Assembly (NCBI GenBank): GCA_902763885.1
Contig: CACWTU010000008.1
Location: forward strand, 66,427-130,426
Reading direction: 5' to 3'
Length of the DNA: 64,000 nucleotides
Source of the DNA: an uncultured Bacteroidales bacterium
GTDB lineage: Bacteria > Bacteroidota > Bacteroidia > Bacteroidales > Bacteroidaceae
The number at the start of each line of letters is the position of its first letter. The stretch's first letter is position 1. The position numbers were made by a program, and so were the translations under genes. Below are positions 48,798 to 64,000 of this stretch, piece by piece. The notes under the pieces are model-generated. The model worked only from the letters and a program-made list of their open reading frames with translations, ran no database searches and was not told the origin of the DNA.

Positions 48798-49910
48798 ATG
48801 AATATGAATAATAAAGTTCCTTTTCATGCCGCACTGATTATGATGTGTGTCATTGCATTTTCCGTATCTCTTGGCTCTTGTGAAAAGAATGATGCTGATC
48901 AGATTGATGATGAATACTCTCTGAGCCTAAACGTTGATACCAATGGTGTCAACTTTACTATAAGACCTTTACTTGATTGGGGTGCCACTGTGGCTGACGT
49001 GGAAAAGTACATGGCTAAGAATTATCCTAGCTGGGAAGTTGAGGATGATGGAAAGCTGGTATATGATTCTACAGTAGTATCATGGTTAAAATCGTATAGT
49101 TGTAATGATATATACATGTATTTCTTTTTTAAGGATGAAGCAGGTAATGGTTTCTGTATGATTGAATTCGATTTCTATGGAAAGAATAATATAAAGCAGC
49201 TTCAGGATGAATGTGTAAGATTGGGCCTTAAATATAAGGGATTGTTATATTGGGAGGAAGTTCCTTATCTTTTATCTTATCATTATTTATCTGCTGATGA
49301 GAAGCTTGAGGTAAATTTGTTCTTTGAAAACTTTGATGATGAAGATTACTGGGGAATTTCTTTCCAGTCCTTAGACAAAGATGATCAGAATCACTTGGTT
49401 GACACGGAAAATCTCTGTATTAACGTTGATGTAGATGAGGGCAGCTATAGCCTGATCCCCTTTAAGAATTGGGATGGCACTTTGGCCGATGTCAGGGACT
49501 ACATGGCTGAAAACTATCCGGATTGGGAGGTCGAGGATGGCGGAGCAATGATAAAGGATACCGTAGACTTGGATACCGTTCCCCACTGGTTTGCCTTATA
49601 TCATAAGGATAGTCTGGCTGTCTTCTACCATTTTGAAGATGTGGAGGGAATCAGGTTTAGCAGTGTACAATATGCATACTACTCATCGGCAGACGTGACA
49701 CAGAACAGAAATGAATTTACAAGAAACGGTCTTATATATATAGGTCATGATACATTATTTTATCAAGATCAGATATCCAATTACGTATATGTTCCTTTAA
49801 GCAAGGATTATTATGTGACAACTTCATCCTGGGATTTGTATAATGGTGCCTGGTCTATAGATATAGCTCCGTATGATGAGAGATTCATAAACCGTGTCAA
49901 GCGTGAATGA
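48798..49910 (+). CDS. hypothetical surface lipoprotein, two-domain internal repeat, paralog 1
   Basis: 370 aa. Lipobox SLGSC followed by acidic EKNDADQIDDE (surface export signal-like). The block WG/WD-T-ADV..YM..NYP.WEVED.G occurs twice. AT-rich coding sequence. Confidence 0.6.
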   Translation: MNMNNKVPFHAALIMMCVIAFSVSLGSCEKNDADQIDDEYSLSLNVDTNGVNFTIRPLLDWGATVADVEKYMAKNYPSWEVEDDGKLVYDSTVVSWLKSYSCNDIYMYFFFKDEAGNGFCMIEFDFYGKNNIKQLQDECVRLGLKYKGLLYWEEVPYLLSYHYLSADEKLEVNLFFENFDDEDYWGISFQSLDKDDQNHLVDTENLCINVDVDEGSYSLIPFKNWDGTLADVRDYMAENYPDWEVEDGGAMIKDTVDLDTVPHWFALYHKDSLAVFYHFEDVEGIRFSSVQYAYYSSADVTQNRNEFTRNGLIYIGHDTLFYQDQISNYVYVPLSKDYYVTTSSWDLYNGAWSIDIAPYDERFINRVKRE

Positions 49911-49974: not shown

Positions 49975-51084
49975 ATGAATATGAATAATAAAGTTCCTTT
50001 TCATGCCGCACTGATTATGATGTGTGTCATTGCATTTTCCGTATCTCTTGGCTCTTGTGACAAGAATGATGCTGATCAGATTGATGATGAATACTCTCTG
50101 AGCCTGAATGTTGATACCAACGGTGTCAACTATACCATCAGACCTTTACTTGATTGGGGTGCCACTCTGGCTGACGTTGAAAAGTACATGGTCAAGAATT
50201 ATCCTGACTGGGAAGTTGAGGATGATGGAAAGCTGGTATATGATTCAATATGGGATAGATGGATATTATACTATGGGTGTAACAGAATGACGGTTTATTT
50301 CTTTTTTAAGGATGAAAAAGGAAGTAGTTTAATAATGACTCAATACTTATGCGATGGATCAAATGATATAAAGCGGATTCAGGATGAACTGTTAAGATTG
50401 GGTTTTATTTACAAGGGACTGTTATATTGGGATTACCTGCCGGATGATTTAACCTATCTTTATTTCTCTGCCGATGAAAAACTTGAGGTTCAATTGGGCG
50501 TGAATAACAACGAAGGGGATGATTTCTGGGTGATAAATTTTCAGCCCACTGACAAAAATGACCTGAATCAACTGATTGACCAGACAACCATGAGTCTGAT
50601 CATTAATTCCGAGAATGACAGTTGTAGCTTGACTCCTTTGATGGATTGGGGCGCTTCATTTACAGATATCAAGAGATTCATGGCTCAGAACTATCCTGAT
50701 TGGGAAATACAGAATAACGGAGATTTGATTTGTGATACCATCGCTGAAGATTCTTTAGATTGGTATGCCAAATTTAGTAATGGTGAATTCAGCCAATTCT
50801 TCTTTTTTGACAATGGTGATGGTGAAAGGTATCATTCTTTCCAATTCGTAGACTATTCATCAACTGATGAAAAACCGCTTAATTGGGAACTGACAAGAAA
50901 CGGCCTTGTATATTTAGGTCATGATACAACGTATTATGTGGAAGAAATATCGAATCACGTATATGTTCCTTTAAGTAAAGACTATGTTGCTTTAGCTTCA
51001 GCCTGGGAAATGTATGGAGGCTGTAGGGTTATTGATGTCATTCCATACGATGAGGAGTACATAAACAGTATCATGCGTGATTGA
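49975..51084 (+). CDS. hypothetical surface lipoprotein, two-domain internal repeat, paralog 2
   Basis: 369 aa. The first ~285 nt are about 95% identical to paralog 1 (first ~100 nt identical), and the remainder is much more diverged. Confidence 0.6.
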   Translation: MNMNNKVPFHAALIMMCVIAFSVSLGSCDKNDADQIDDEYSLSLNVDTNGVNYTIRPLLDWGATLADVEKYMVKNYPDWEVEDDGKLVYDSIWDRWILYYGCNRMTVYFFFKDEKGSSLIMTQYLCDGSNDIKRIQDELLRLGFIYKGLLYWDYLPDDLTYLYFSADEKLEVQLGVNNNEGDDFWVINFQPTDKNDLNQLIDQTTMSLIINSENDSCSLTPLMDWGASFTDIKRFMAQNYPDWEIQNNGDLICDTIAEDSLDWYAKFSNGEFSQFFFFDNGDGERYHSFQFVDYSSTDEKPLNWELTRNGLVYLGHDTTYYVEEISNHVYVPLSKDYVALASAWEMYGGCRVIDVIPYDEEYINSIMRD

Positions 51085-55662: not shown

Positions 55663-56901
55663 ATGGAGAAGTTTCTGGCCAGAAGACTGTACGGTAGGGA
55701 CGAGGGCGTTAAAGGAGGCTCGCGTCCGGCTATCATCATTGCCACAACAGGCATTGCGGTAGGTCTGGTGGTGATGATACTTACCTTGGCCGTAACCCGC
55801 GGATTCAAAAGTCAGATACGCGACAAGGTGATGGGATTCTCACAGCATATCACCGTTACAAATTACTACGCAGGTCTGAGTACGGTTGAGGATCCTGTTC
55901 CCTGTACAGATTCCACCATGTATGCCTTGCTATCGCAGAGTCTTATTGAAAGGGTGCAGCCATATGTGAGCAAACCTTGTATAATAAGGACCCAGGAGGC
56001 TTTTCATGGTTTTATGCTTAAGGGTATCAATGCCGATTATGACCGCACATTCCTTAACCGCTACATGGTCAGGGGCGGTTTCCCTCAGCCACAGGACTCA
56101 CTCGGTAACAACTGGATAGTGCTTTCCCGCGCCATTGCCGATATGTTAGGGCTGGATGTAGATGCTAAGGCCGATGTCTATTTCATGCAGGATCAGGTAC
56201 GCATACGCCGTCTTACTGTAACCGGAATCTATGAGACTGGTTTTCTTGAGTATGACCGCATGTTCGGAATTACTGAACTGCAGTTGCTCCAGCGTCTTAA
56301 TGGATGGGAACCTTATGAGTACAGCGGTCTGGAGATAGGCCTTACCGATGTACGTAAGGTAGATGATGGATACGGTCAGGTGCGTGATGTGATCAATGTG
56401 CTTGAGAAACAGACAGATGAGAGTTTCCTTGTCCAGACATTATACGATACACATTCCGGTCTTTTTGCATGGCTCGACGTTCTGGACCTGAATGTATGGA
56501 TCATACTTGCGCTAATGTTGGGAATAGCCGGATTCACTATGATATCAGGTCTTCTCATTATCATATTTGAACGTACGGCCACAATAGGTACTCTCAAGTC
56601 ATTGGGTGCATCAAACAAGACTGTAAGAGGTGTATTCATGCGTCTTGCATCATTCATTATCCTTAAAGGAATGGTGATAGGAAATCTGGTAGGTGTGATT
56701 ATCTGTCTTGTGCAGCAGTGGTTCCATATCATACCATTGGATCCGGCCAACTACTATCTGGACAGTGTGCCTATGCAGTTGGGGGCAGGATGGTTCATCA
56801 TTCTTAATATAGTGATGTTTCTGCTTTCTACGCTGATGATGCTTATTCCGTGTGCTGTCATCTCCCGCATCGTTCCCTCAAAATCAATCCGCTTCGAGTG
56901 A
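55663..56901 (+). CDS. FtsX/LolE-family ABC transporter permease
   Basis: The first ATG is at 55663 (the track start at 55657 is TTG). Layout is TM1, a large periplasmic loop, then three C-terminal TMs, with a TIGTLKSLGAS motif. Confidence 0.8.
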   Translation: MEKFLARRLYGRDEGVKGGSRPAIIIATTGIAVGLVVMILTLAVTRGFKSQIRDKVMGFSQHITVTNYYAGLSTVEDPVPCTDSTMYALLSQSLIERVQPYVSKPCIIRTQEAFHGFMLKGINADYDRTFLNRYMVRGGFPQPQDSLGNNWIVLSRAIADMLGLDVDAKADVYFMQDQVRIRRLTVTGIYETGFLEYDRMFGITELQLLQRLNGWEPYEYSGLEIGLTDVRKVDDGYGQVRDVINVLEKQTDESFLVQTLYDTHSGLFAWLDVLDLNVWIILALMLGIAGFTMISGLLIIIFERTATIGTLKSLGASNKTVRGVFMRLASFIILKGMVIGNLVGVIICLVQQWFHIIPLDPANYYLDSVPMQLGAGWFIILNIVMFLLSTLMMLIPCAVISRIVPSKSIRFE

Positions 56902-56930
56902 CCCAATAGGGACAGTCCCCTTTGGGTCAC
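56898..56930. terminator. shared palindromic terminator gtgacccaatagggacagtcccctttgggtcac
   Basis: Both convergent stop codons (TGA 56899-56901 on + and TGA 56929-56927 on -) lie inside the stem. Confidence 0.75.
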
Positions 56931-57757
56931 AGCAGTGAAGACATACCTTCACGTAGCTCAGGCATGGGGCATTTGGTATCGCGCTCCACTATCAGTGTCT
57001 TTAGACCGGCGTAAGGGCGAATTTCTTCTTCTATATCCTTGAGCGGACGGTCCTGGCCGAAATAGGCTTTTGCAAAGAATTCCCAAAACCTGATTGCCAC
57101 GGGCTTTGCCATATGGAACGCCTCCTGTATGAATTCCTCTTTACTGAGGACACAACACAGATATACCATGCCGACATCAAACAGATTGAATCCGTAGCAG
57201 AAATCTCCCAGGTCAATGAAATAGCGATTGGTACCTGTAAATATGGCATTGCCGTACTGCAGGTCACCATGGATGGCGGTGTCGGTATCGGGGGCATCGG
57301 CAATGAACTTTCCGATACGGTCTTTCTGGGCGGTGCTGAAAAACGGATTGTCAGCCAGCAGTTTGTAGTAGCGGTCCTTGACGCATTCAAACTGAGTGGT
57401 ATCTACGTGGACGGAGTGAAGCTTGAGGCTCATCTCAGCAAACTCACTTGCGTACTGTTCTGCAAGCTCCGGATTATCACCGGTGGCGCGGGCGTATGAT
57501 TTCTTGTCACGGATGCGACGGAACCTTATGCCGTATCGGCCATCATCAGTAACTACATAGTCTCCTGGCTCCGGGGTGGGTATGCCTAACTCAAAAACCT
57601 TGCGGGCCAGATTCATCTCATCAAGAGGCTGCTGTATCTTGCCCGGAAAGTAGAGCTTGAGCATAAGGTCCGGATCAGTACGATGGTTGTAACTCTCACC
57701 GTTGGCACCTCCTCCGGAGATGATGTAGTCATTAAGGTTAATATGAACAGCTTCCAT
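56927..57757 (-). CDS. aminoglycoside/choline-kinase-like phosphotransferase (APH family)
   Basis: Brenner-type catalytic motif HGDLQYGNAIF and metal-binding IDLGDF. 276 aa. Its start overlaps the upstream stop (TAATG). Confidence 0.75.
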   Translation of the reverse strand: MEAVHINLNDYIISGGGANGESYNHRTDPDLMLKLYFPGKIQQPLDEMNLARKVFELGIPTPEPGDYVVTDDGRYGIRFRRIRDKKSYARATGDNPELAEQYASEFAEMSLKLHSVHVDTTQFECVKDRYYKLLADNPFFSTAQKDRIGKFIADAPDTDTAIHGDLQYGNAIFTGTNRYFIDLGDFCYGFNLFDVGMVYLCCVLSKEEFIQEAFHMAKPVAIRFWEFFAKAYFGQDRPLKDIEEEIRPYAGLKTLIVERDTKCPMPELREGMSSLL

Positions 57758-58338
57758 TATTTATCACCGAATACTCTGTTAATAAGCCATTCAAACTCCT
57801 GGAAGGCAAATGTGTCATCCAGCTCGCGCAGAGAGTCTGCCAAACCACGGTAATGCCACTCATGTTCTTTAGGGTCATGTACACGGAATAAGTTCCAGAT
57901 TTTGTCACCCTGCATATACTGATCCCTTGCAATGGCGCGCATATTGGACAGCTTGTCACCTATGGCAACGATTTTTGCATCTCTCGATACTGCGGCCAGG
58001 CGGTCTATGGCAGCCTGCTTGCGGTCATGCCAGCTGTCCTCTTCCGAACGGTTTTCAAATACCACATCCGTCTCTGCGCTGACAAGTGATGCCACTCTGT
58101 CACCGAACTCGGAGCGTATCTGTTCAATTGTTACGTCAGTATCCTCAACGGTGTCATGAAGTGCTGCAGCAGCCAGGATTTCCTGGTCAGAGGTAATAGT
58201 GGCAGCTATTGAAACAGCCTCCATGGGGTGTACAATATAAGGGAATCCCTTACCGCGGCGTTCTGTGCCGGCATGTGCCTTGACCGCAAACATAATGGCG
58301 CGGTCAAGCAGTTCTGTATCTAATGGTTTGTTTGGCAT
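57757..58338 (-). CDS. stand-alone HD-domain (p)ppGpp-hydrolase-like protein (small alarmone hydrolase)
   Basis: AHAGTERRGKGFPYIVHPMEAV and ALHDTVEDT (HD motif) match the RelA/SpoT hydrolase domain. 193 aa. Confidence 0.75.
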   Translation of the reverse strand: MPNKPLDTELLDRAIMFAVKAHAGTERRGKGFPYIVHPMEAVSIAATITSDQEILAAAALHDTVEDTDVTIEQIRSEFGDRVASLVSAETDVVFENRSEEDSWHDRKQAAIDRLAAVSRDAKIVAIGDKLSNMRAIARDQYMQGDKIWNLFRVHDPKEHEWHYRGLADSLRELDDTFAFQEFEWLINRVFGDK

Positions 58339-58339
58339 T

Positions 58340-59410
58340 TCAGTTGTCTGTATTCATGAAAGGAAGATCTTTTGCCTGCTCCATCAGCATCTCGGCCATC
58401 ATCTCGTTACTGTCTGACTCACCGTTAAGCGTGTCAAACATGTTTTTGATTCCGGCCTTTCCGCCTCCGTTCTTGAGTATATATGCAATGCAAAGGTCTT
58501 GCGGTCCTATTGATGATGATATTATGTCAAGGTCTGTAAGTCCTATCTGATAGCATGCCAGTTGGTATGCACCGTCGGAGTATTTCTTGACGACAGATGC
58601 TATATCGCCTAACGATTTGAGCCCCATGCTTTTGAATACAGGCAGGTAGGGCATCAGCGGAACTTCCTGTATCTCAGCCTGGTTCATGGCGGCAATACGC
58701 TTGTTAAGCTGGTTGAACGGTTCCAGTTCAAGGTAACTGCGGAACGTATCACCATCAATGGGAACCTCATCCAGATTGCCTGAGCGGACAAGAGCCTGTA
58801 CCCTGCGGCGGTAGTCAGTCAGTTCTATGCGTATCTTGCTGAACTCATCATCCACAAGTTCCAGCATACCTGCCAGACGGCTCATGTTCCTCATATAACG
58901 CTTGGGTATCTCCACTCCTGATTTGTAACCGGTGTCATGGTCCATATTGGCCCAGGCATGCTGCAGTAATGTGCGCATCTGGATCTCAAAACGGTACGGG
59001 AAACCCGGTACAGAGCAGATATAGTGCAGTGAAAGATAACCGAAACTGTCTATCTCATGTATCTTGCGTTTGTCAACGGAGTTCTCCCAGTCTATGGTAA
59101 AGAGACGTTCTACGGCCGATGCCACTTTATCCACATCATCCAGATAGAATGTAATCACTCTCAGGCCCAATATATCAGTGATATCTGAGAGACTGTTGTA
59201 TTTGTGTCCCTTCAACTCCAGCTTGCCGGCCAATGAATCATATGCCTTGACACGTGATTCTATGGCGGCGACAATAAGTCCGGCATCAGCCAGAGTCTTT
59301 TTGAGCTTCTCCTTTGTATCCTGTTCAATCTCCCTGAAACGTGGCAGATTATTCTGATATTCATCCAGGATTGACTGACAGTGCGCATCAAGATGTCTTG
59401 CCTTTGACAT
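58340..59410 (-). CDS. RelA/SpoT-domain nucleotide pyrophosphokinase (small alarmone synthetase) with extra C-terminal domain
   Basis: Synthetase-domain motifs: SRVKAYDSLAGKL, DILGLRVITFY, GYLSLHYI, EIQMRTLLQHAWANMDHD. About 150 further residues have no motif I recognise. Confidence 0.75.
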   Translation of the reverse strand: MSKARHLDAHCQSILDEYQNNLPRFREIEQDTKEKLKKTLADAGLIVAAIESRVKAYDSLAGKLELKGHKYNSLSDITDILGLRVITFYLDDVDKVASAVERLFTIDWENSVDKRKIHEIDSFGYLSLHYICSVPGFPYRFEIQMRTLLQHAWANMDHDTGYKSGVEIPKRYMRNMSRLAGMLELVDDEFSKIRIELTDYRRRVQALVRSGNLDEVPIDGDTFRSYLELEPFNQLNKRIAAMNQAEIQEVPLMPYLPVFKSMGLKSLGDIASVVKKYSDGAYQLACYQIGLTDLDIISSSIGPQDLCIAYILKNGGGKAGIKNMFDTLNGESDSNEMMAEMLMEQAKDLPFMNTDN

Positions 59411-59439: not shown

Positions 59440-59447
59440 CAAAGATA
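59440..59447 (-). promoter_or_regulatory. candidate -7 promoter element TATCTTTG for the SAS-SAH-kinase operon
   Basis: TAnnTTTG match about 30 nt upstream of the SAS ATG, in the divergent region shared with rmuC. Confidence 0.4.
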
Positions 59448-59514: not shown

Positions 59515-60813
59515 ATGGAAATCATAATAGGTGTTTTGTGTGCAGCATTGGGCTTACTGGCAGGTTTTATGCTGGGACGTAACCATAAGCGTGAGGCAGA
59601 GCTTGAGGCGCAGGTCAAGGTGCTGGAGTCACAGGTTCAGACTGCCGATAAGCAGATGCTTAAATCCAAGGAGGAGTGGCAGGCCCATACGCAGGAACTG
59701 CTAACGGCACAACAGGCTAAATTTGATGAGACAATAGCCAAGGTCACGGCACAGATGCGTGACGCCACTGATGAGATGCTTAAGAAGCGCCAGGAAGAGT
59801 TTTCTGCATCAAGCAACACCAGTCTTGGGCAGATAGTCAATCCTCTAAAGGAGACTATTGACAAGATGAAGGAGGCCATGAAGGAAAATACCATAAAGCA
59901 GACAGAGATAGGAGGTGAGATCAAGACTCAGGCTCTGAATATGATGCGCCAGAGCGAGGCGGCCAAGAACAGTGCCGATGAGCTTACCCGCGTGTTCCGT
60001 CACGCAGGCAGGGTGCAGGGCAACTGGGGTGAAATAATTCTCGATGAGTTACTTGAATCCCAAGGCCTGACCAAGGGGGTACACTATGAGATACAGTCTT
60101 CAATCCGTGATTCTGCCGGTGATGTGGTCCGTAATGTTGATGATCACGGTATGCGTCCCGATGTCATCCTGCATCTTGATCAGAAACGTGATGTCATCAT
60201 TGACTCAAAAGTGTCTCTTACCGCTTTCATGGATTATGTGAACGCAGAGGATGAGGCTGACCGTCAGAGATACCTCAAGGCTCATGTGGACAGTATCCGT
60301 AAGCATGTAAAGGAACTCTCCACAAAGGATTACTCATCATACGTAAAGCCTCCCAAGGTGCGTATGGATTATGTGATTATGTTTGTGCCCAACACCGGTG
60401 CTCTCTGGACCGCTATCACCGCGCAGCCCGATTTATGGCGTAATGCCATGGACAGTAATGTCTATATTGCCGATGAGCAGACCCTGTTTGCCGCTCTGCG
60501 TATCATCAACCTGACATGGACCCAGATAATTCAGGCACAGAATCATGAGAAGGTGTTTGAACTGGCCAATGAACTTATGGACAGGGTAGGGCAGTTCATG
60601 GGCAGATACAAGAATATGGGCGATGCCCTGTCAAAGGCTCTCAAGGCCTATGAGGATGGCGAGAAGAAACTTCAACCCGGAGGCCAAAGCATACTTCAGA
60701 CTTGTGGTAAGCTGCAGAAACTGGGAGCTAAGCAGAGTTCCAAGAACCCCTTGCCTCAATTGGATGATGATTCAGAAACCGGGGAGGATCCGGAGAGACT
60801 GATTGAAGAATAA
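59515..60813 (+). CDS. rmuC: DNA recombination protein RmuC
   Basis: N-terminal TM plus coiled coil, WGE..L..LLE motif (NWGEIILDELLES), PDVILHLD nuclease-like core, MFVPNTGA. Confidence 0.85.
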   Translation: MEIIIGVLCAALGLLAGFMLGRNHKREAELEAQVKVLESQVQTADKQMLKSKEEWQAHTQELLTAQQAKFDETIAKVTAQMRDATDEMLKKRQEEFSASSNTSLGQIVNPLKETIDKMKEAMKENTIKQTEIGGEIKTQALNMMRQSEAAKNSADELTRVFRHAGRVQGNWGEIILDELLESQGLTKGVHYEIQSSIRDSAGDVVRNVDDHGMRPDVILHLDQKRDVIIDSKVSLTAFMDYVNAEDEADRQRYLKAHVDSIRKHVKELSTKDYSSYVKPPKVRMDYVIMFVPNTGALWTAITAQPDLWRNAMDSNVYIADEQTLFAALRIINLTWTQIIQAQNHEKVFELANELMDRVGQFMGRYKNMGDALSKALKAYEDGEKKLQPGGQSILQTCGKLQKLGAKQSSKNPLPQLDDDSETGEDPERLIEE

Positions 60814-60870: not shown

Positions 60871-61176
60871 TCAGTCCTGAATCTCGAACAGGTTCAGGAA
60901 ACCGGTCATCATGAAGACTGAGCGGATCTCATTGTTGATAGCCTTGACAATTACCTTGCCGCCTTTTGATGCAGCAGCCTTGCGCAGTGACAGGAACAGT
61001 CTCAGACCGGAGCTTGAGATGTACTGCAACTGAGTGCAGTCCAGGATGACGGTTCCTGCAGCAAATTGTGTCAGATTATCAAAATCACCGCTTATCTCCT
61101 GTGAGGCGGGTGTGTCCAAACGACCTATTAACTGTGCGGTCGTTACAGAATCCTGTGTGTTGATTTTTACTTCCAT
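60871..61176 (-). CDS. STAS-domain anti-sigma-factor antagonist (SpoIIAA/RsbV-like)
   Basis: 101 aa. LDCTQLQYISSSGLRLFLSL contains the conserved phospho-serine motif (DxxxxxxISSSGL). Confidence 0.8.
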   Translation of the reverse strand: MEVKINTQDSVTTAQLIGRLDTPASQEISGDFDNLTQFAAGTVILDCTQLQYISSSGLRLFLSLRKAAASKGGKVIVKAINNEIRSVFMMTGFLNLFEIQD

Positions 61177-61199: not shown

Positions 61200-62708
61200 T
61201 TAATCTTCCGTATCTCCCATAATGATGACCAGCCTGTCACCAACCATAAGCTTAAGGCTGCCATGAGGAACGATATACTTTTCAGCCCGTCTTACCATAA
61301 TTACACGTATGCCGTGAGGCAGATGCAGGTCACGCAGTGTCTCTCCGCGTTCAAGATCCTCCTCCGTTACAATATGGTCACGCAGCATTCCCATCTCCTC
61401 CGGTATTTCCATGCCGAAAGTCTCCACTTCAGGGTCATCGTCTATGCTCATGTTGAGCAGACGGGCCATAGGTGAAATAGTCATTCCCTGAACTAGAAGT
61501 GAGAGCAAGGTGATGGAGAACACTATGTTGAATATCTCGTTTGAGCCATCCACACCCTCAACTACGGTATAGAGTGCGAACAGGATGGGGCCCGCTCCTT
61601 TGAGTCCTACCCATGAAGCCAGAATTTTGGCTCTGAATGTGAATCCTTTGAACGGTGCCAAACTGAGCAGGGTACCGATTGGGCGTGCTATAAGCATAAG
61701 GAACAGTCCTATTAAGATTGCCGGCCAAATGATATGTGGTATCTGTGAAGGCTTGGCCAGCAGACCCAGCAACAGGAACATGATAAGCTGTGAGAGCCAT
61801 GTTATTCCGTCAAAGAACAGGAGCACGTCTTTCTTGAACGGCAGGTTTGGAGTGTTACCTATCACTATAGCTGATACATAAAGTGACAATAGACCGTTGC
61901 CACCTATGGATGATGCAAAACCGTTGGCGAACAGTGCTATGCTCAGAATCATTATAGAGTAGAGCGGGCTTGTCTGGAGCTTTATTTTGGGCAGTAGCCA
62001 ACGGGCGGCGTGTCCCAGAGCAAGTCCAACTCCAAAGCCTAGTATAATCTGTTTTATCAGAATCCAGACTCCTGTAAGAATTATATTAAATGTACCTGAT
62101 GCCCCTGATACGCCGTGAAGTGCTTCCATAATCTGCACCAGGAGTATGGTAAGCACATATGCCATAGGGTCATTACTACCAGACTCAAGCTCAAGCATCG
62201 GTCCCAGGTTTTCACGGAGTGTGAGACGGTGACCTCGCAGTATTGAGAATACGGATGCTGAATCTGTTGATGAGAGCACTGTGGCCAGAAGGAAACAGCC
62301 CATGATGGTTGTACCTGCACCTCCAATCTTGTCACCGAGTGCAAAATAGATGAACAAACCTGTGGCTACTATTGTCAGGAACACGCCCAGTGTTGACATG
62401 GATATTCCCTTCCTGATGATAGGGCGTGTCTCCTCAAGTGATGTCTCCAAACCACCTGTGAGTAGGATGATGGTCATCGCAAGATGTCCGAGGAACTCTG
62501 CTGCTCCAAGATTATTCACATTGATGCCTAAACCATCCTCACCGGCCAACATTCCTATTATGAGGAACAGAAGCATGGTGGGAACGCCGAATTTGGTACC
62601 TATTTTTGCCATGATTATGGCAATGAACATCAGAATGGAGACAAGCAGGATGAGGTTTCCTGATGCCAGATCGATGTTGAATATAGAAAGAGGTATGGCT
62701 GTCATCAT
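61200..62708 (-). CDS. K+/H+ antiporter (CPA1, NhaP2/CvrA-like) with C-terminal TrkA-C (RCK_C) domain
   Basis: 502 aa with about 12 TM segments. N-terminus is FGVPTMLLFLIIGMLAGEDGLG. C-terminal soluble domain is LRDLHLPHGIRVIMVRR...GDRLVIIMG. Confidence 0.8.
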   Translation of the reverse strand: MMTAIPLSIFNIDLASGNLILLVSILMFIAIIMAKIGTKFGVPTMLLFLIIGMLAGEDGLGINVNNLGAAEFLGHLAMTIILLTGGLETSLEETRPIIRKGISMSTLGVFLTIVATGLFIYFALGDKIGGAGTTIMGCFLLATVLSSTDSASVFSILRGHRLTLRENLGPMLELESGSNDPMAYVLTILLVQIMEALHGVSGASGTFNIILTGVWILIKQIILGFGVGLALGHAARWLLPKIKLQTSPLYSIMILSIALFANGFASSIGGNGLLSLYVSAIVIGNTPNLPFKKDVLLFFDGITWLSQLIMFLLLGLLAKPSQIPHIIWPAILIGLFLMLIARPIGTLLSLAPFKGFTFRAKILASWVGLKGAGPILFALYTVVEGVDGSNEIFNIVFSITLLSLLVQGMTISPMARLLNMSIDDDPEVETFGMEIPEEMGMLRDHIVTEEDLERGETLRDLHLPHGIRVIMVRRAEKYIVPHGSLKLMVGDRLVIIMGDTED

Positions 62709-64000
62709 TTACTTATTTTCTTGATAAGAGTGAGTACGTTGCGTCCGTTTACTCTCTCATAATTGATATGGTCCATAATCTGACGTATCAGATGTATTCC
62801 CAGTCCTCCTATGGAACGATCCTCCGCACTAAGCGTTATATCAACCTCAGGTTTGGCTGTGGGGTCAAAAGGTGTACCGGAATCAATGATTATGAATGAT
62901 ACCTCAGAGCCGTTTGATTTGACCTCAATTGTTACGTTGCCTACCGTACCTGCGGGATAAGCGTAGTTCATGACATTGACAACGGCCTCCTCAATGGCCA
63001 GATTGATCTGCATGGTTGAAGACATATCAAAGCCATTGGCTTCACAAACCTCATCAATGAAGGTGTTGAGCCTGGGTACGCGCTTCAGGTCATTGGTGAG
63101 TGTGAGGGTGCGCTGATATTTTATCTCCTCATGATGCTTTGTGTACTGAATGGCAAGCATGGTAAGGTCATCGCTCTGATCAGCCTCACCTACGAATTCA
63201 TGAACGGCACTGGTCATGCGTTCTATTATAGCTGTAGGTGAGAATACCCGGTTCTGTTGCAGATTATGCGCCAGGTCAATGGTGCGGTTCATCTCAAACT
63301 GGTCATGATTTATGTTCTCAGCCTCGGGGAGTCCGTCAGTATAAAGGAATATTGTCGTGTCCGGGTCAATAAGGGTCTCCTGCAGCGTGAACTTCCAATT
63401 AGCCATTACTCCCACCGGCAGGTTTGAGTCAACGGGCAATAATCCGGCGCCGGTATTACCGATAAGTATCGGCGCATCGTGACCGGCATTGCAATAGTGC
63501 ATACGTCCGGTGGGCAGATCCAGAACACCTACGAACAGGGTGACGAACATGTTGGAATCATTATCCTCCGACATGGCGTCATTGATTCTGGATATGATTT
63601 TCTCCGGTGATGATTCATGGGCCGAAATGGTTCTGAACAGAGCCTTTGTCACCACCATATAGAGTGATGCCGGAACCCCCTTGCCGGATACATCGCCGAT
63701 ACAGAAGAACAGCTTCTCATCACGGATAAAGAAGTCAAATAGGTCGCCACCCACCTCTTTGGCAGGAGTCAATTGTCCGAATACATCAATGTCATCTCTA
63801 TCAGGATATGGCGGAAATATCTTGGGGAGCATAGCCATCTGGATATCGCGGGCAATCTTTAGTTCACCCTGTATGCGTCCTTTCTGCTCGTTTACCTGTT
63901 TCAACTCTTCAATCTGACGTACAATGGACTGTTGCATGTATCTGAATGATTCATTCAGTTTTCCAATCTCATCGTTATGCTTATATTCCGTAATCTCCTC
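62705..64000 (-). CDS. HAMP-PP2C (SpoIIE/RsbU-like) phosphatase fused to an RsbW-like HATPase kinase domain; 5' end beyond the window
   Basis: The frame is open through to 64000 (EEITEYKHNDEIGKLNESFRYMQ is the end of a HAMP domain). PP2C motifs: GGDLFDF, IGDVSGKGV, TDGLPEA. C-terminal HATPase: EEAVVNVMNYAY...DSGTPFDP...GGLGIHLIRQIMD. Overlaps the antiporter start by ATGA. Confidence 0.8.
   Translation of the reverse strand, partial: EEITEYKHNDEIGKLNESFRYMQQSIVRQIEELKQVNEQKGRIQGELKIARDIQMAMLPKIFPPYPDRDDIDVFGQLTPAKEVGGDLFDFFIRDEKLFFCIGDVSGKGVPASLYMVVTKALFRTISAHESSPEKIISRINDAMSEDNDSNMFVTLFVGVLDLPTGRMHYCNAGHDAPILIGNTGAGLLPVDSNLPVGVMANWKFTLQETLIDPDTTIFLYTDGLPEAENINHDQFEMNRTIDLAHNLQQNRVFSPTAIIERMTSAVHEFVGEADQSDDLTMLAIQYTKHHEEIKYQRTLTLTNDLKRVPRLNTFIDEVCEANGFDMSSTMQINLAIEEAVVNVMNYAYPAGTVGNVTIEVKSNGSEVSFIIIDSGTPFDPTAKPEVDITLSAEDRSIGGLGIHLIRQIMDHINYERVNGRNVLTLIKKISK

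Follow-up and report, generated by a model that had tools for sequence, protein, structure and literature searches.

Three tightly packed minus-strand genes in a 64-kb window (the whole stretch of 64,000 nucleotides of contig CACWTU010000008.1, from an uncultured Bacteroidales bacterium, that was analysed here) raise the question of what a small alarmone synthetase (SAS), a small alarmone hydrolase (SAH) and an APH/choline-kinase-fold phosphotransferase do together, and whether they form a toxin–antitoxin or defence module of the toxic SAS (toxSAS) kind, as a first-pass annotation had proposed. The comparison of genomes revealed that the trio forms part of a conserved signalling cassette on the chromosome, which is larger and also includes a STAS protein and a membrane sensor with a PP2C phosphatase and an RsbW-like kinase domain. 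We lean towards reading the trio as the enzymatic half of a partner-switching cassette, in which the SAS would stand in the place of a sigma factor and the SAH would act as the reset.

A check of the open reading frames (ORFs) of the window placed the three genes and both junctions exactly where the first-pass annotation had put them. The SAS gene (58340..59410, minus strand) encodes 356 amino acids, the SAH gene (57757..58338, minus strand) encodes 193 amino acids and the gene of the APH-fold kinase (56927..57757, minus strand) encodes 276 amino acids of the TIGR02172 type; the SAS/SAH junction reads TGA-A-ATG with a single spacer base at 58339, and the SAH/APH junction reads TAATG with a 1-nt overlap at 57757. 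The domain assignments were also upheld, as the Pfam matches exceed the gathering cut-offs (RelA_SpoT with 69 bits over SAS residues 52–165, HD_4 with 78 bits and an E-value of 8.6e-22, and APH with 50 bits), and every motif quoted for the three proteins was found in their sequences. The catalytic motifs of SAS, SAH and APH are kept across orthologues in a motif alignment, and the three are for this reason considered real genes rather than chance ORFs.

The cassette in rumen and gut Bacteroidales

A scan of species-representative genomes for SAS orthologues yielded 80 loci with 51–98% SAS identity, nearly all of them from rumen or gut Bacteroidales, with Bacteroidales bacterium UBA1182 as the closest and with further loci from Paludibacteraceae, Cryptobacteroides, Alistipes and the isolates Prevotella sp. 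P6B1 and MA2016. The window proteins were mapped by tblastn, and genes on the same strand and within 7 kb of SAS were counted in the 58 species-level genomes that have at least 5 kb on each side of SAS. The most constant neighbour of SAS was the STAS gene (52/58 genomes), followed by the PP2C-kinase sensor (47/58), SAH (43/58) and the APH-fold kinase (40/58), and all four were found near SAS in 38 of the 58 genomes. The co-conservation of the kinase with the synthetase–hydrolase pair, on which the idea of a three-gene module had leaned, was confirmed: the kinase is genuinely co-inherited, most tightly with SAH, which it accompanies in 39 of the 43 SAH-containing loci, and APH paralogues of 25–37% identity adjoin SAS in distant lineages.

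In the window, the STAS gene (60871..61176, minus strand) encodes a single-domain, RsbV/SpoIIAA-like protein of 101 amino acids with the motif YISSSGL (Pfam STAS, 2.4e-16); next to it lie a gene for a Na+/H+ exchanger of 502 amino acids with a C-terminal TrkA_C (RCK_C) domain (61200..62708, minus strand; Pfam Na_H_Exchanger and TrkA_C) and the 3' part of the sensor gene (62705..64000, minus strand), which covers the PP2C (SpoIIE) and HATPase_c_2 domains and whose open frame continues past the window end. The sensor is complete in contigs with an identical SAS protein, where it has 783 amino acids and a dCache_1/PDC, a HAMP, a PP2C and a HATPase_c_2 domain (Pfam SpoIIE 2.4e-46; C-terminal HATPase_c_2 3.9e-26). 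Each of the five core proteins keeps its catalytic or phospho-acceptor motifs across orthologues, including the phosphorylatable-serine motif Y(I/V)SS(S/T)GLR of the STAS protein in 53 orthologues and the PP2C motifs GDVSGKG, NAGH, TDG and DD of the sensor in 58 orthologues. As judged from its predicted proteins, the locus encodes every partner-switching part bar the sigma factor (a PP2C phosphatase, an RsbW-like kinase and a STAS protein with its serine), and no sigma or anti-sigma gene recurred in the cassette in the neighbourhood survey.

At least six gene orders were observed among the lineages, and the gene set persists through them, such as SAS-SAH-APH-sensor-STAS; sensor-STAS-SAS-APH-SAH-(Y_phosphatase3); sensor-STAS-SAS in the Prevotella type; and further variants. 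The median intergenic gaps of the cassette are 12 nt or less (4 nt from STAS to SAS), and 18 of the 19 SAS-SAH junctions have a gap of 30 nt or less. The window-type arrangement, with rmuC (59515..60813, plus strand; Pfam RmuC 1.3e-83) between the STAS and SAS blocks, is repeated in the contigs with an identical SAS protein and in one 94% relative; the 87% SAS relatives display the order rmuC (reverse) / SAS - sensor - exchanger - STAS - SAH - kinase; and SAS and SAH are three genes apart in L001–L004 and L015. In the Prevotella-type genomes, the STAS and sensor genes adjoin SAS, SAH is absent within 7 kb in 13 of 15, and the catalytic residues of SAS are kept. The Na+/H+ exchanger is a lineage-variable member, present in the cassette in 9/58 genomes and at several positions, and a Y_phosphatase3 (PF13350) gene is added to the cassette in about 18 species (e.g., L039:14444-15244).

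Paludibacteraceae-type loci usually have the order sensor-STAS-SAS-APH-SAH-phosphatase; tandem duplicate sensor and STAS pairs stand beside a single SAS in L027; extra, non-adjacent sensor/STAS copies were found in L064 and L063; and in one 87% relative (L013:10001-12914) SAS and SAH are directly followed by FtsX, the APH-fold kinase gene being missing. The duplicated sensor/STAS copies suggest that several inputs may converge on one synthetase.

Domains of the proteins and their natural fusions

The SAS protein is made up of a RelQ/RelP-like SYNTH domain (about residues 1–211; 58778-59410, minus strand), as seen by Pfam, AlphaFold2 and Foldseek, and of an all-helical C-terminal domain (residues 212–356; 58343-58777, minus strand), for which a separate structure model was made. 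In the AlphaFold2 model of the whole protein, with a predicted local distance difference test (pLDDT) score of 92.7, the N-terminal 200 residues superpose on RelQ/RelP, which are the best Foldseek matches (template-modelling (TM) score about 0.8, E about 2e-9), and residues R53, K55, D79, G82, R84, E142, Q144, H151, Y162 and K163 are invariant in the family alignment. Compared with PDB sequences, the profile of the SAS family gave 80–92 bits for RelQ/RelP, 34 bits for CapRel (SYNTH domain only), 22–25 bits for long Rel and 19 bits for FaRel2; of the toxic subfamilies FaRel, FaRel2, PhRel, PhRel2 and CapRel, the comparison covered CapRel and FaRel2. The catalytic domain is much nearer to RelQ/RelP than to CapRel or FaRel2, and with 54.7 bits on the YjbM equivalog model NF053588, far under the cut-off of 320, the SAS does not reach the RelQ/RelP equivalog level.

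The C-terminal domain of about 150 residues has no Pfam match. Modelled alone (residues 212–356), it is helical with a pLDDT of 96.9, and the model found no match in PDB or BFVD (best PDB E 2.4, TM 0.3 or less); the full SAS model aligns poorly with CapRel 7ZTB (TM 0.38, root-mean-square deviation 23). A CapRel-like sensor or pseudo-zinc-finger, the former of which the first-pass annotation had suspected in this domain, was ruled out, as the high-confidence model is without a PDB or BFVD match. The region is a new, confidently predicted domain on a widespread SAS family, which comprises 7,756 clusters at 50% identity at E 1e-3 or better and in which most members have 350–380 amino acids with a conserved C-terminal extension; a 2011 survey had entered no SAS for Bacteroidia. 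Three proteins in which the C-terminal domain is seemingly fused to an amidohydrolase, FeoB or HAD protein (P0158, P0209 and P0140, respectively) are probable assembly or gene-calling chimeras and were not used.

By its sequence, SAH is classed as a stand-alone HD alarmone hydrolase with HD...ED...D/N catalytic motifs; its best PDB sequence match is Lmo0812 (4yf1, 8.6e-22), followed by Mesh1 and the Rel hydrolase domains, and the motifs RRGKGFPYI-H, LHD..EDT and GDKLSNMRA are kept in 35 orthologues. The APH-fold kinase scores 50.1 against a Pfam gathering cut-off of 23.2 and stands at the border of TIGR02172 (226.8 bits versus a cut-off of 228.2), and its Gly-rich loop, K34, HGDxQxxN and IDxGDF are kept in 43 orthologues; it has no match among PDB sequences, and no literature was found for the TIGR02172 family.

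Two kinds of fusion proteins were detected. P0122, P0391 and P0392, found among 50%-identity representatives and in NCBI and JGI, have 521 amino acids with an N-terminal HATPase_c_2 domain followed by SAS and are mutually 81–82% identical; in P0122, the fused SAS, its C-terminal domain included, shares 50% identity with the window SAS across residues 6–353, and the kinase domain shares 57% identity with that of the window sensor (E 1e-49). With orthologous parts joined in one chain, these proteins give the strongest computational hint of a physical pairing between SAS and the RsbW-like domain. The other kind is P0179 (L095:1208-2794), in which the same SAS type with its C-terminal region is fused to an HD_4 hydrolase in a protein of 528 amino acids, supporting the functional pairing of SAS and SAH. 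The order of its domains, synthetase then hydrolase, is the reverse of that of the long RelA/SpoT homologue (RSH) enzymes. At the kinase-SAS fusion loci (L094:8001-9566 and L096:2282-3847), the fused gene stands alone among housekeeping genes such as those for major facilitator superfamily transporters, YidC and AspRS.

A proposed signal-gated alarmone switch and the other readings

In the reading that we prefer, the membrane sensor (periplasmic dCache, HAMP, cytoplasmic PP2C and, at the C-terminus, an RsbW/SpoIIAB-like serine kinase) would make up, with the STAS protein as its substrate, a partner-switching module without a sigma factor, and the SAS would occupy the sigma place as the output; it is the output candidate because of its linkage to STAS and the sensor and because of the kinase-SAS fusions. 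We propose the following mechanism. The RsbW-like kinase domain of the sensor would bind and restrain the SAS, probably via the SAS-specific C-terminal helical domain; an extracellular ligand would activate the phosphatase, the dephosphorylated STAS protein would capture the kinase domain, and the SAS would be freed. The freed SAS would pyrophosphorylate a purine nucleotide, most likely GDP/GTP to give (p)ppGpp and less likely adenine nucleotides, and the co-transcribed SAH would remove the product and thereby reset the switch. A second push-pull pair tied to SAH would be made up of the APH-fold kinase and, in lineages that have it, Y_phosphatase3, and would act on the nucleotide product or on one of the proteins. 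The Na+/H+ exchanger with its TrkA_C domain may serve as a local effector. The fullest form of this model, in which extracellular cues would be turned directly into an alarmone pulse and the kinase/phosphatase pair would further modify the enzymes or the nucleotide, the latter possibly to an undescribed messenger, we regard as possible and rather short of probable.

Several points weigh against this switch. Gene content, domain architecture, predicted catalytic competence, co-localisation and fusions can be read from the sequences; the binding partners of the switch, its product, the direction of regulation and the substrate of the kinase we infer. The sensor-STAS block and the SAS trio of the window are separate transcription units with rmuC between them, and the cassette is not uniform, since most Prevotella-type genomes have neither SAH nor APH next to SAS. 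The kinase-SAS fusions form a small lineage of three 90% clusters, with no STAS or PP2C gene within 8–10 kb. The mobile relatives described below score higher (94–161 bits by tblastn) than RelQ (65 bits by BLASTP), and the window SAS could have toxSAS-type chemistry because its nearest relatives outside the clade are such mobile-element SASs. The linkage to SAH is no proof of an alarmone product, because SAHs also reverse tRNA pyrophosphorylation (bioRxiv 10.1101/2021.04.30.441581), and the role of the APH-fold kinase is not explained by the switch.

The genomic context and the spread of the family bear on the question of defence. The cassette is flanked by housekeeping genes (lysC, lysA, yggS-like, fadD-like, lepA and ftsX), the guanine-cytosine (GC) content of the trio region is ordinary in a scan of the window, and a patchy, mobile-element or defence-island distribution was not found for the window clade. 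Among the PADLOC models, there was no match for SAH, APH, STAS, sensor, exchanger or phosphatase. A location in defence islands of other genomes, which the first-pass annotation had named as a point to check, was not seen where flanks were examined. The window SAS gave a partial match to the defence-candidate model PDC-S33 (50–74 bits, SYNTH domain only), and membership in a defence system was rejected because this match is partial and equally given by unrelated family members and because the partner genes are without a PADLOC match. With tblastn and an IMG/VR scan, phages, plasmids and IMG/VR viral contigs yielded no SAS relatives above 50% identity, and none of the 80 viral-contig SAS relatives has SAH, APH, STAS or sensor genes nearby (0/80); a mobile-element origin was rejected, as the phage, plasmid and IMG/VR relatives all have 49% identity or less and none comes with partner genes.

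The nearest SAS relatives outside the clade are uncharacterised single genes on mobile elements with 28–49% identity, such as those of the Bacteroides finegoldii phage-plasmid NZ_OY725946; the 3.5-kb Klebsiella plasmid pZZW20-3.5K; and the Mycobacterium prophage prophi68-1 (gp42), whose SAS gives 94 bits versus the window SAS; at least 100 IMG/VR contigs carry SAS relatives. The window clade is a chromosomal, vertically conserved branch whose context differs from that of these mobile relatives, and the broad SAS family may include defence-type toxSAS. An IMG/VR contig (L112:3055-7095) carries a 357-amino-acid SAS with a homologous C-terminal domain between a 611-amino-acid gene, in which a putative GHKL-ATPase-like N-terminal motif was read by eye, and a weak AbiP-like gene (E 3e-4); for this distant member of the family, the surroundings resemble a defence hot spot. 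Two other distant members, P0160 and P0180, lie on short contigs with unrelated surroundings (HEPN; dodecin/DUF6314) and were uninformative as guides to context.

On this evidence, we hold it unlikely that the locus is a toxSAS toxin–antitoxin or anti-phage module, with SAS as the toxin, SAH as a type IV antitoxin, the C-terminal domain as a phage sensor and the kinase as an extra component, or, in a variant, a chromosomal abortive infection system that the partner-switching proteins would neutralise or trigger. The short gaps in 18/19 SAS-SAH junctions agree with it, as do the established SAS-SAH architecture of FaRel (PMC7229694), the ability of SAHs to detoxify alarmone-making and tRNA-modifying toxSAS alike (bioRxiv 10.1101/2021.04.30.441581), and the distant family members, some with a homologous C-terminal domain, that occur as single genes in prophage and plasmid accessory regions, one of them beside the AbiP-like gene; the PDC-S33 match of the window SAS would fit too, but it is partial and confined to SYNTH. 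Against this, the orthologous clade is present in more than 80 species-level genomes of one order with housekeeping flanks where examined, three genes separate SAH from SAS in the 87% relatives, and the Prevotella-type SAS, catalytically intact by its residues, lacks an adjacent SAH in 13/15 genomes, which argues against SAH as an obligatory antitoxin. The viral-contig relatives are devoid of the partner genes, the family profile favours RelQ/RelP over CapRel and FaRel2, the C-terminal fold is unrelated to that of CapRel, and the input is a predicted periplasmic dCache small-molecule sensor, not an obvious phage detector. The toxin–antitoxin and defence proposal of the first-pass annotation is accordingly disfavoured by the larger sensor/STAS cassette, the non-obligatory SAH, the chromosomal housekeeping context and the lack of a GC anomaly.

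It is similarly improbable that the neighbours are uncoupled, the sensor and STAS proteins controlling another target (a sigma factor or a transporter elsewhere) and SAS-SAH-APH forming an independent nucleotide-metabolism trio that is co-regulated or co-inherited. The two blocks of the window are indeed distinct transcription units that flank rmuC, and STAS-only proteins are often without known targets (PMC8256260); yet the genes stay linked through six or more gene orders and where SAS identity falls to 51%, the median gap from STAS to SAS is 4 nt, an orthologous kinase domain is fused to an orthologous SAS in three independent sequences, and a sigma or anti-sigma gene never recurs in the cassette. 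Least probable, and in our judgement very unlikely, is a housekeeping alarmone machinery in which SAS and SAH replace a missing long Rel/SpoT as a split bifunctional RSH. The high conservation with apparently vertical inheritance, the natural SAS-HD fusion P0179 and the RelQ/RelP-like catalytic domain speak for it, but Bacteroidia typically carry long Rel and RshB (PMC3153485, Table 2), the Prevotella-type SAS is without an adjacent SAH, and input from a dedicated sensor points to a specialised signal rather than the general stringent response. No other RSH-type gene was found in the 64-kb window, which says little about the whole genome.

Expression signals, neighbouring genes and known systems

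The TAnnTTTG box reported ahead of SAS was recovered by pattern search as a Bacteroidetes-type -7 promoter box, TATCTTTG, at 59440..59447 (minus strand), about 30 nt upstream of the SAS ATG and inside the 104-nt divergent spacer common to SAS and rmuC; boxes of this type number 49 in the window versus 31 expected. A second one, TATGTTTG, lies at 58287-58294 (minus strand) inside the 5' end of the SAH gene and may act as an internal promoter or have arisen by chance. The shared terminator claimed for the trio was borne out in part: a folding computation revealed a stable hairpin over the APH stop codon (56889..56935, minus strand; free energy -28.4 kcal/mol, z -4.97), located between the convergent APH and FtsX genes, whereas this hairpin has no clear U-tract and a consensus terminator scan found no canonical intrinsic terminator after the APH gene. 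It is possible that the hairpin serves as a bidirectional terminator common to APH and the convergent FtsX gene.

The rmuC gene is paired divergently with SAS only in the closest lineages and was not considered a functional part of the cassette. It moves together with SAS, as a divergent pair, in both arrangement types of these lineages, and the PADLOC model RTasRmuC, which stands for a DRT accessory, matches it with 209 bits, a reverse transcriptase being absent nearby. Beyond the position of the window end, a gene for an NMT1/THI5-like periplasmic binding protein precedes the dCache sensor by about 15 nt in L005–L010 (e.g., L010:1250-2242), and its product could be a co-sensor in window-type loci. 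Elsewhere in the window, two tandem paralogous predicted lipoproteins (48798-49910 and 49975-51084, plus strand) of 370 and 369 amino acids are 56% identical, with nearly identical first 60 residues and no Pfam match for either, and lie in a low-GC patch (0.42–0.44 versus about 0.49 elsewhere).

The cassette is present in dozens of dominant rumen Bacteroidales species, and the idea of a switch is directly testable because the cultured Prevotella isolates P6B1 and MA2016 carry it, with the natural kinase-SAS fusion as a guide to the link between sensor and SAS. Post-translational switching of SASs is largely unknown beyond RelQ allostery, sigma-less partner-switching modules are mostly without known targets, and the cassette links both; it also places the uncharacterised TIGR02172 kinases in a functional setting and brings to light a new C-terminal domain in a widespread family of SASs, some of whose members are carried by phages. 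No literature was found that joins a small alarmone synthetase with STAS or partner switching, and, in line with what the first-pass annotation had supposed, the toxSAS literature searched gave no description of a kinase-fold partner; the toxSAS study of Jimmy et al. (2020) mentions neither STAS nor a kinase. The cassette is best filed as a combination of two known kinds of system, apparently undescribed.

On the side of partner switching, the nearest parallels are two systems named SypE/SypA and HsbR/HsbA. P. aeruginosa HsbR/HsbA is of the partner-switching type, and HsbA contacts the diguanylate cyclase HsbD. V. fischeri SypE/SypA is a module of a dual kinase/phosphatase and a STAS protein with a non-sigma output (PMC8256260). 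The window cassette resembles both in its single PP2C and RsbW-like HATPase_c_2 protein, in its single-domain STAS protein with a serine, in the lack of a sigma factor in the locus and in a nucleotide-messenger enzyme as a plausible output, and it differs in its input, which is periplasmic dCache and HAMP rather than a receiver domain, and in its candidate output, a RelA/SpoT-type synthetase accompanied by a hydrolase of its own and by an APH-fold kinase, a combination for which no paper was found.

On the side of the synthetases, RelQ (YjbM/SAS1) and RelP (YwaC/SAS2) are the best structural and profile matches and have all catalytic residues in common with the window SAS; in contrast, the identity is about 30%, RelQ and RelP are single-domain proteins of about 210–230 amino acids, the window SAS adds a 145-residue helical C-terminal domain, and its genomic context is different. 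FaRel/ATfaRel of C. marina (PMC7229694) and CapRel (PDB 7ZTB) are alike in the SAS that is tightly followed by SAH, in the size of about 350 amino acids with an N-terminal SYNTH and a C-terminal non-catalytic domain, and in that distant family members are phage-borne, whereas the CapRel profile match is 34 bits over SYNTH alone, the C-terminal fold does not match 7ZTB, and the window clade is chromosomal and vertically conserved in a signalling cassette where SAH is not obligatory. The mobile-element SASs (about 340–380 amino acids) display 31–43% identity over SYNTH, some of them 30–36% through the C-terminal domain, but they stand alone in accessory regions, with no SAH, APH, STAS or sensor gene nearby and many with other C-termini.

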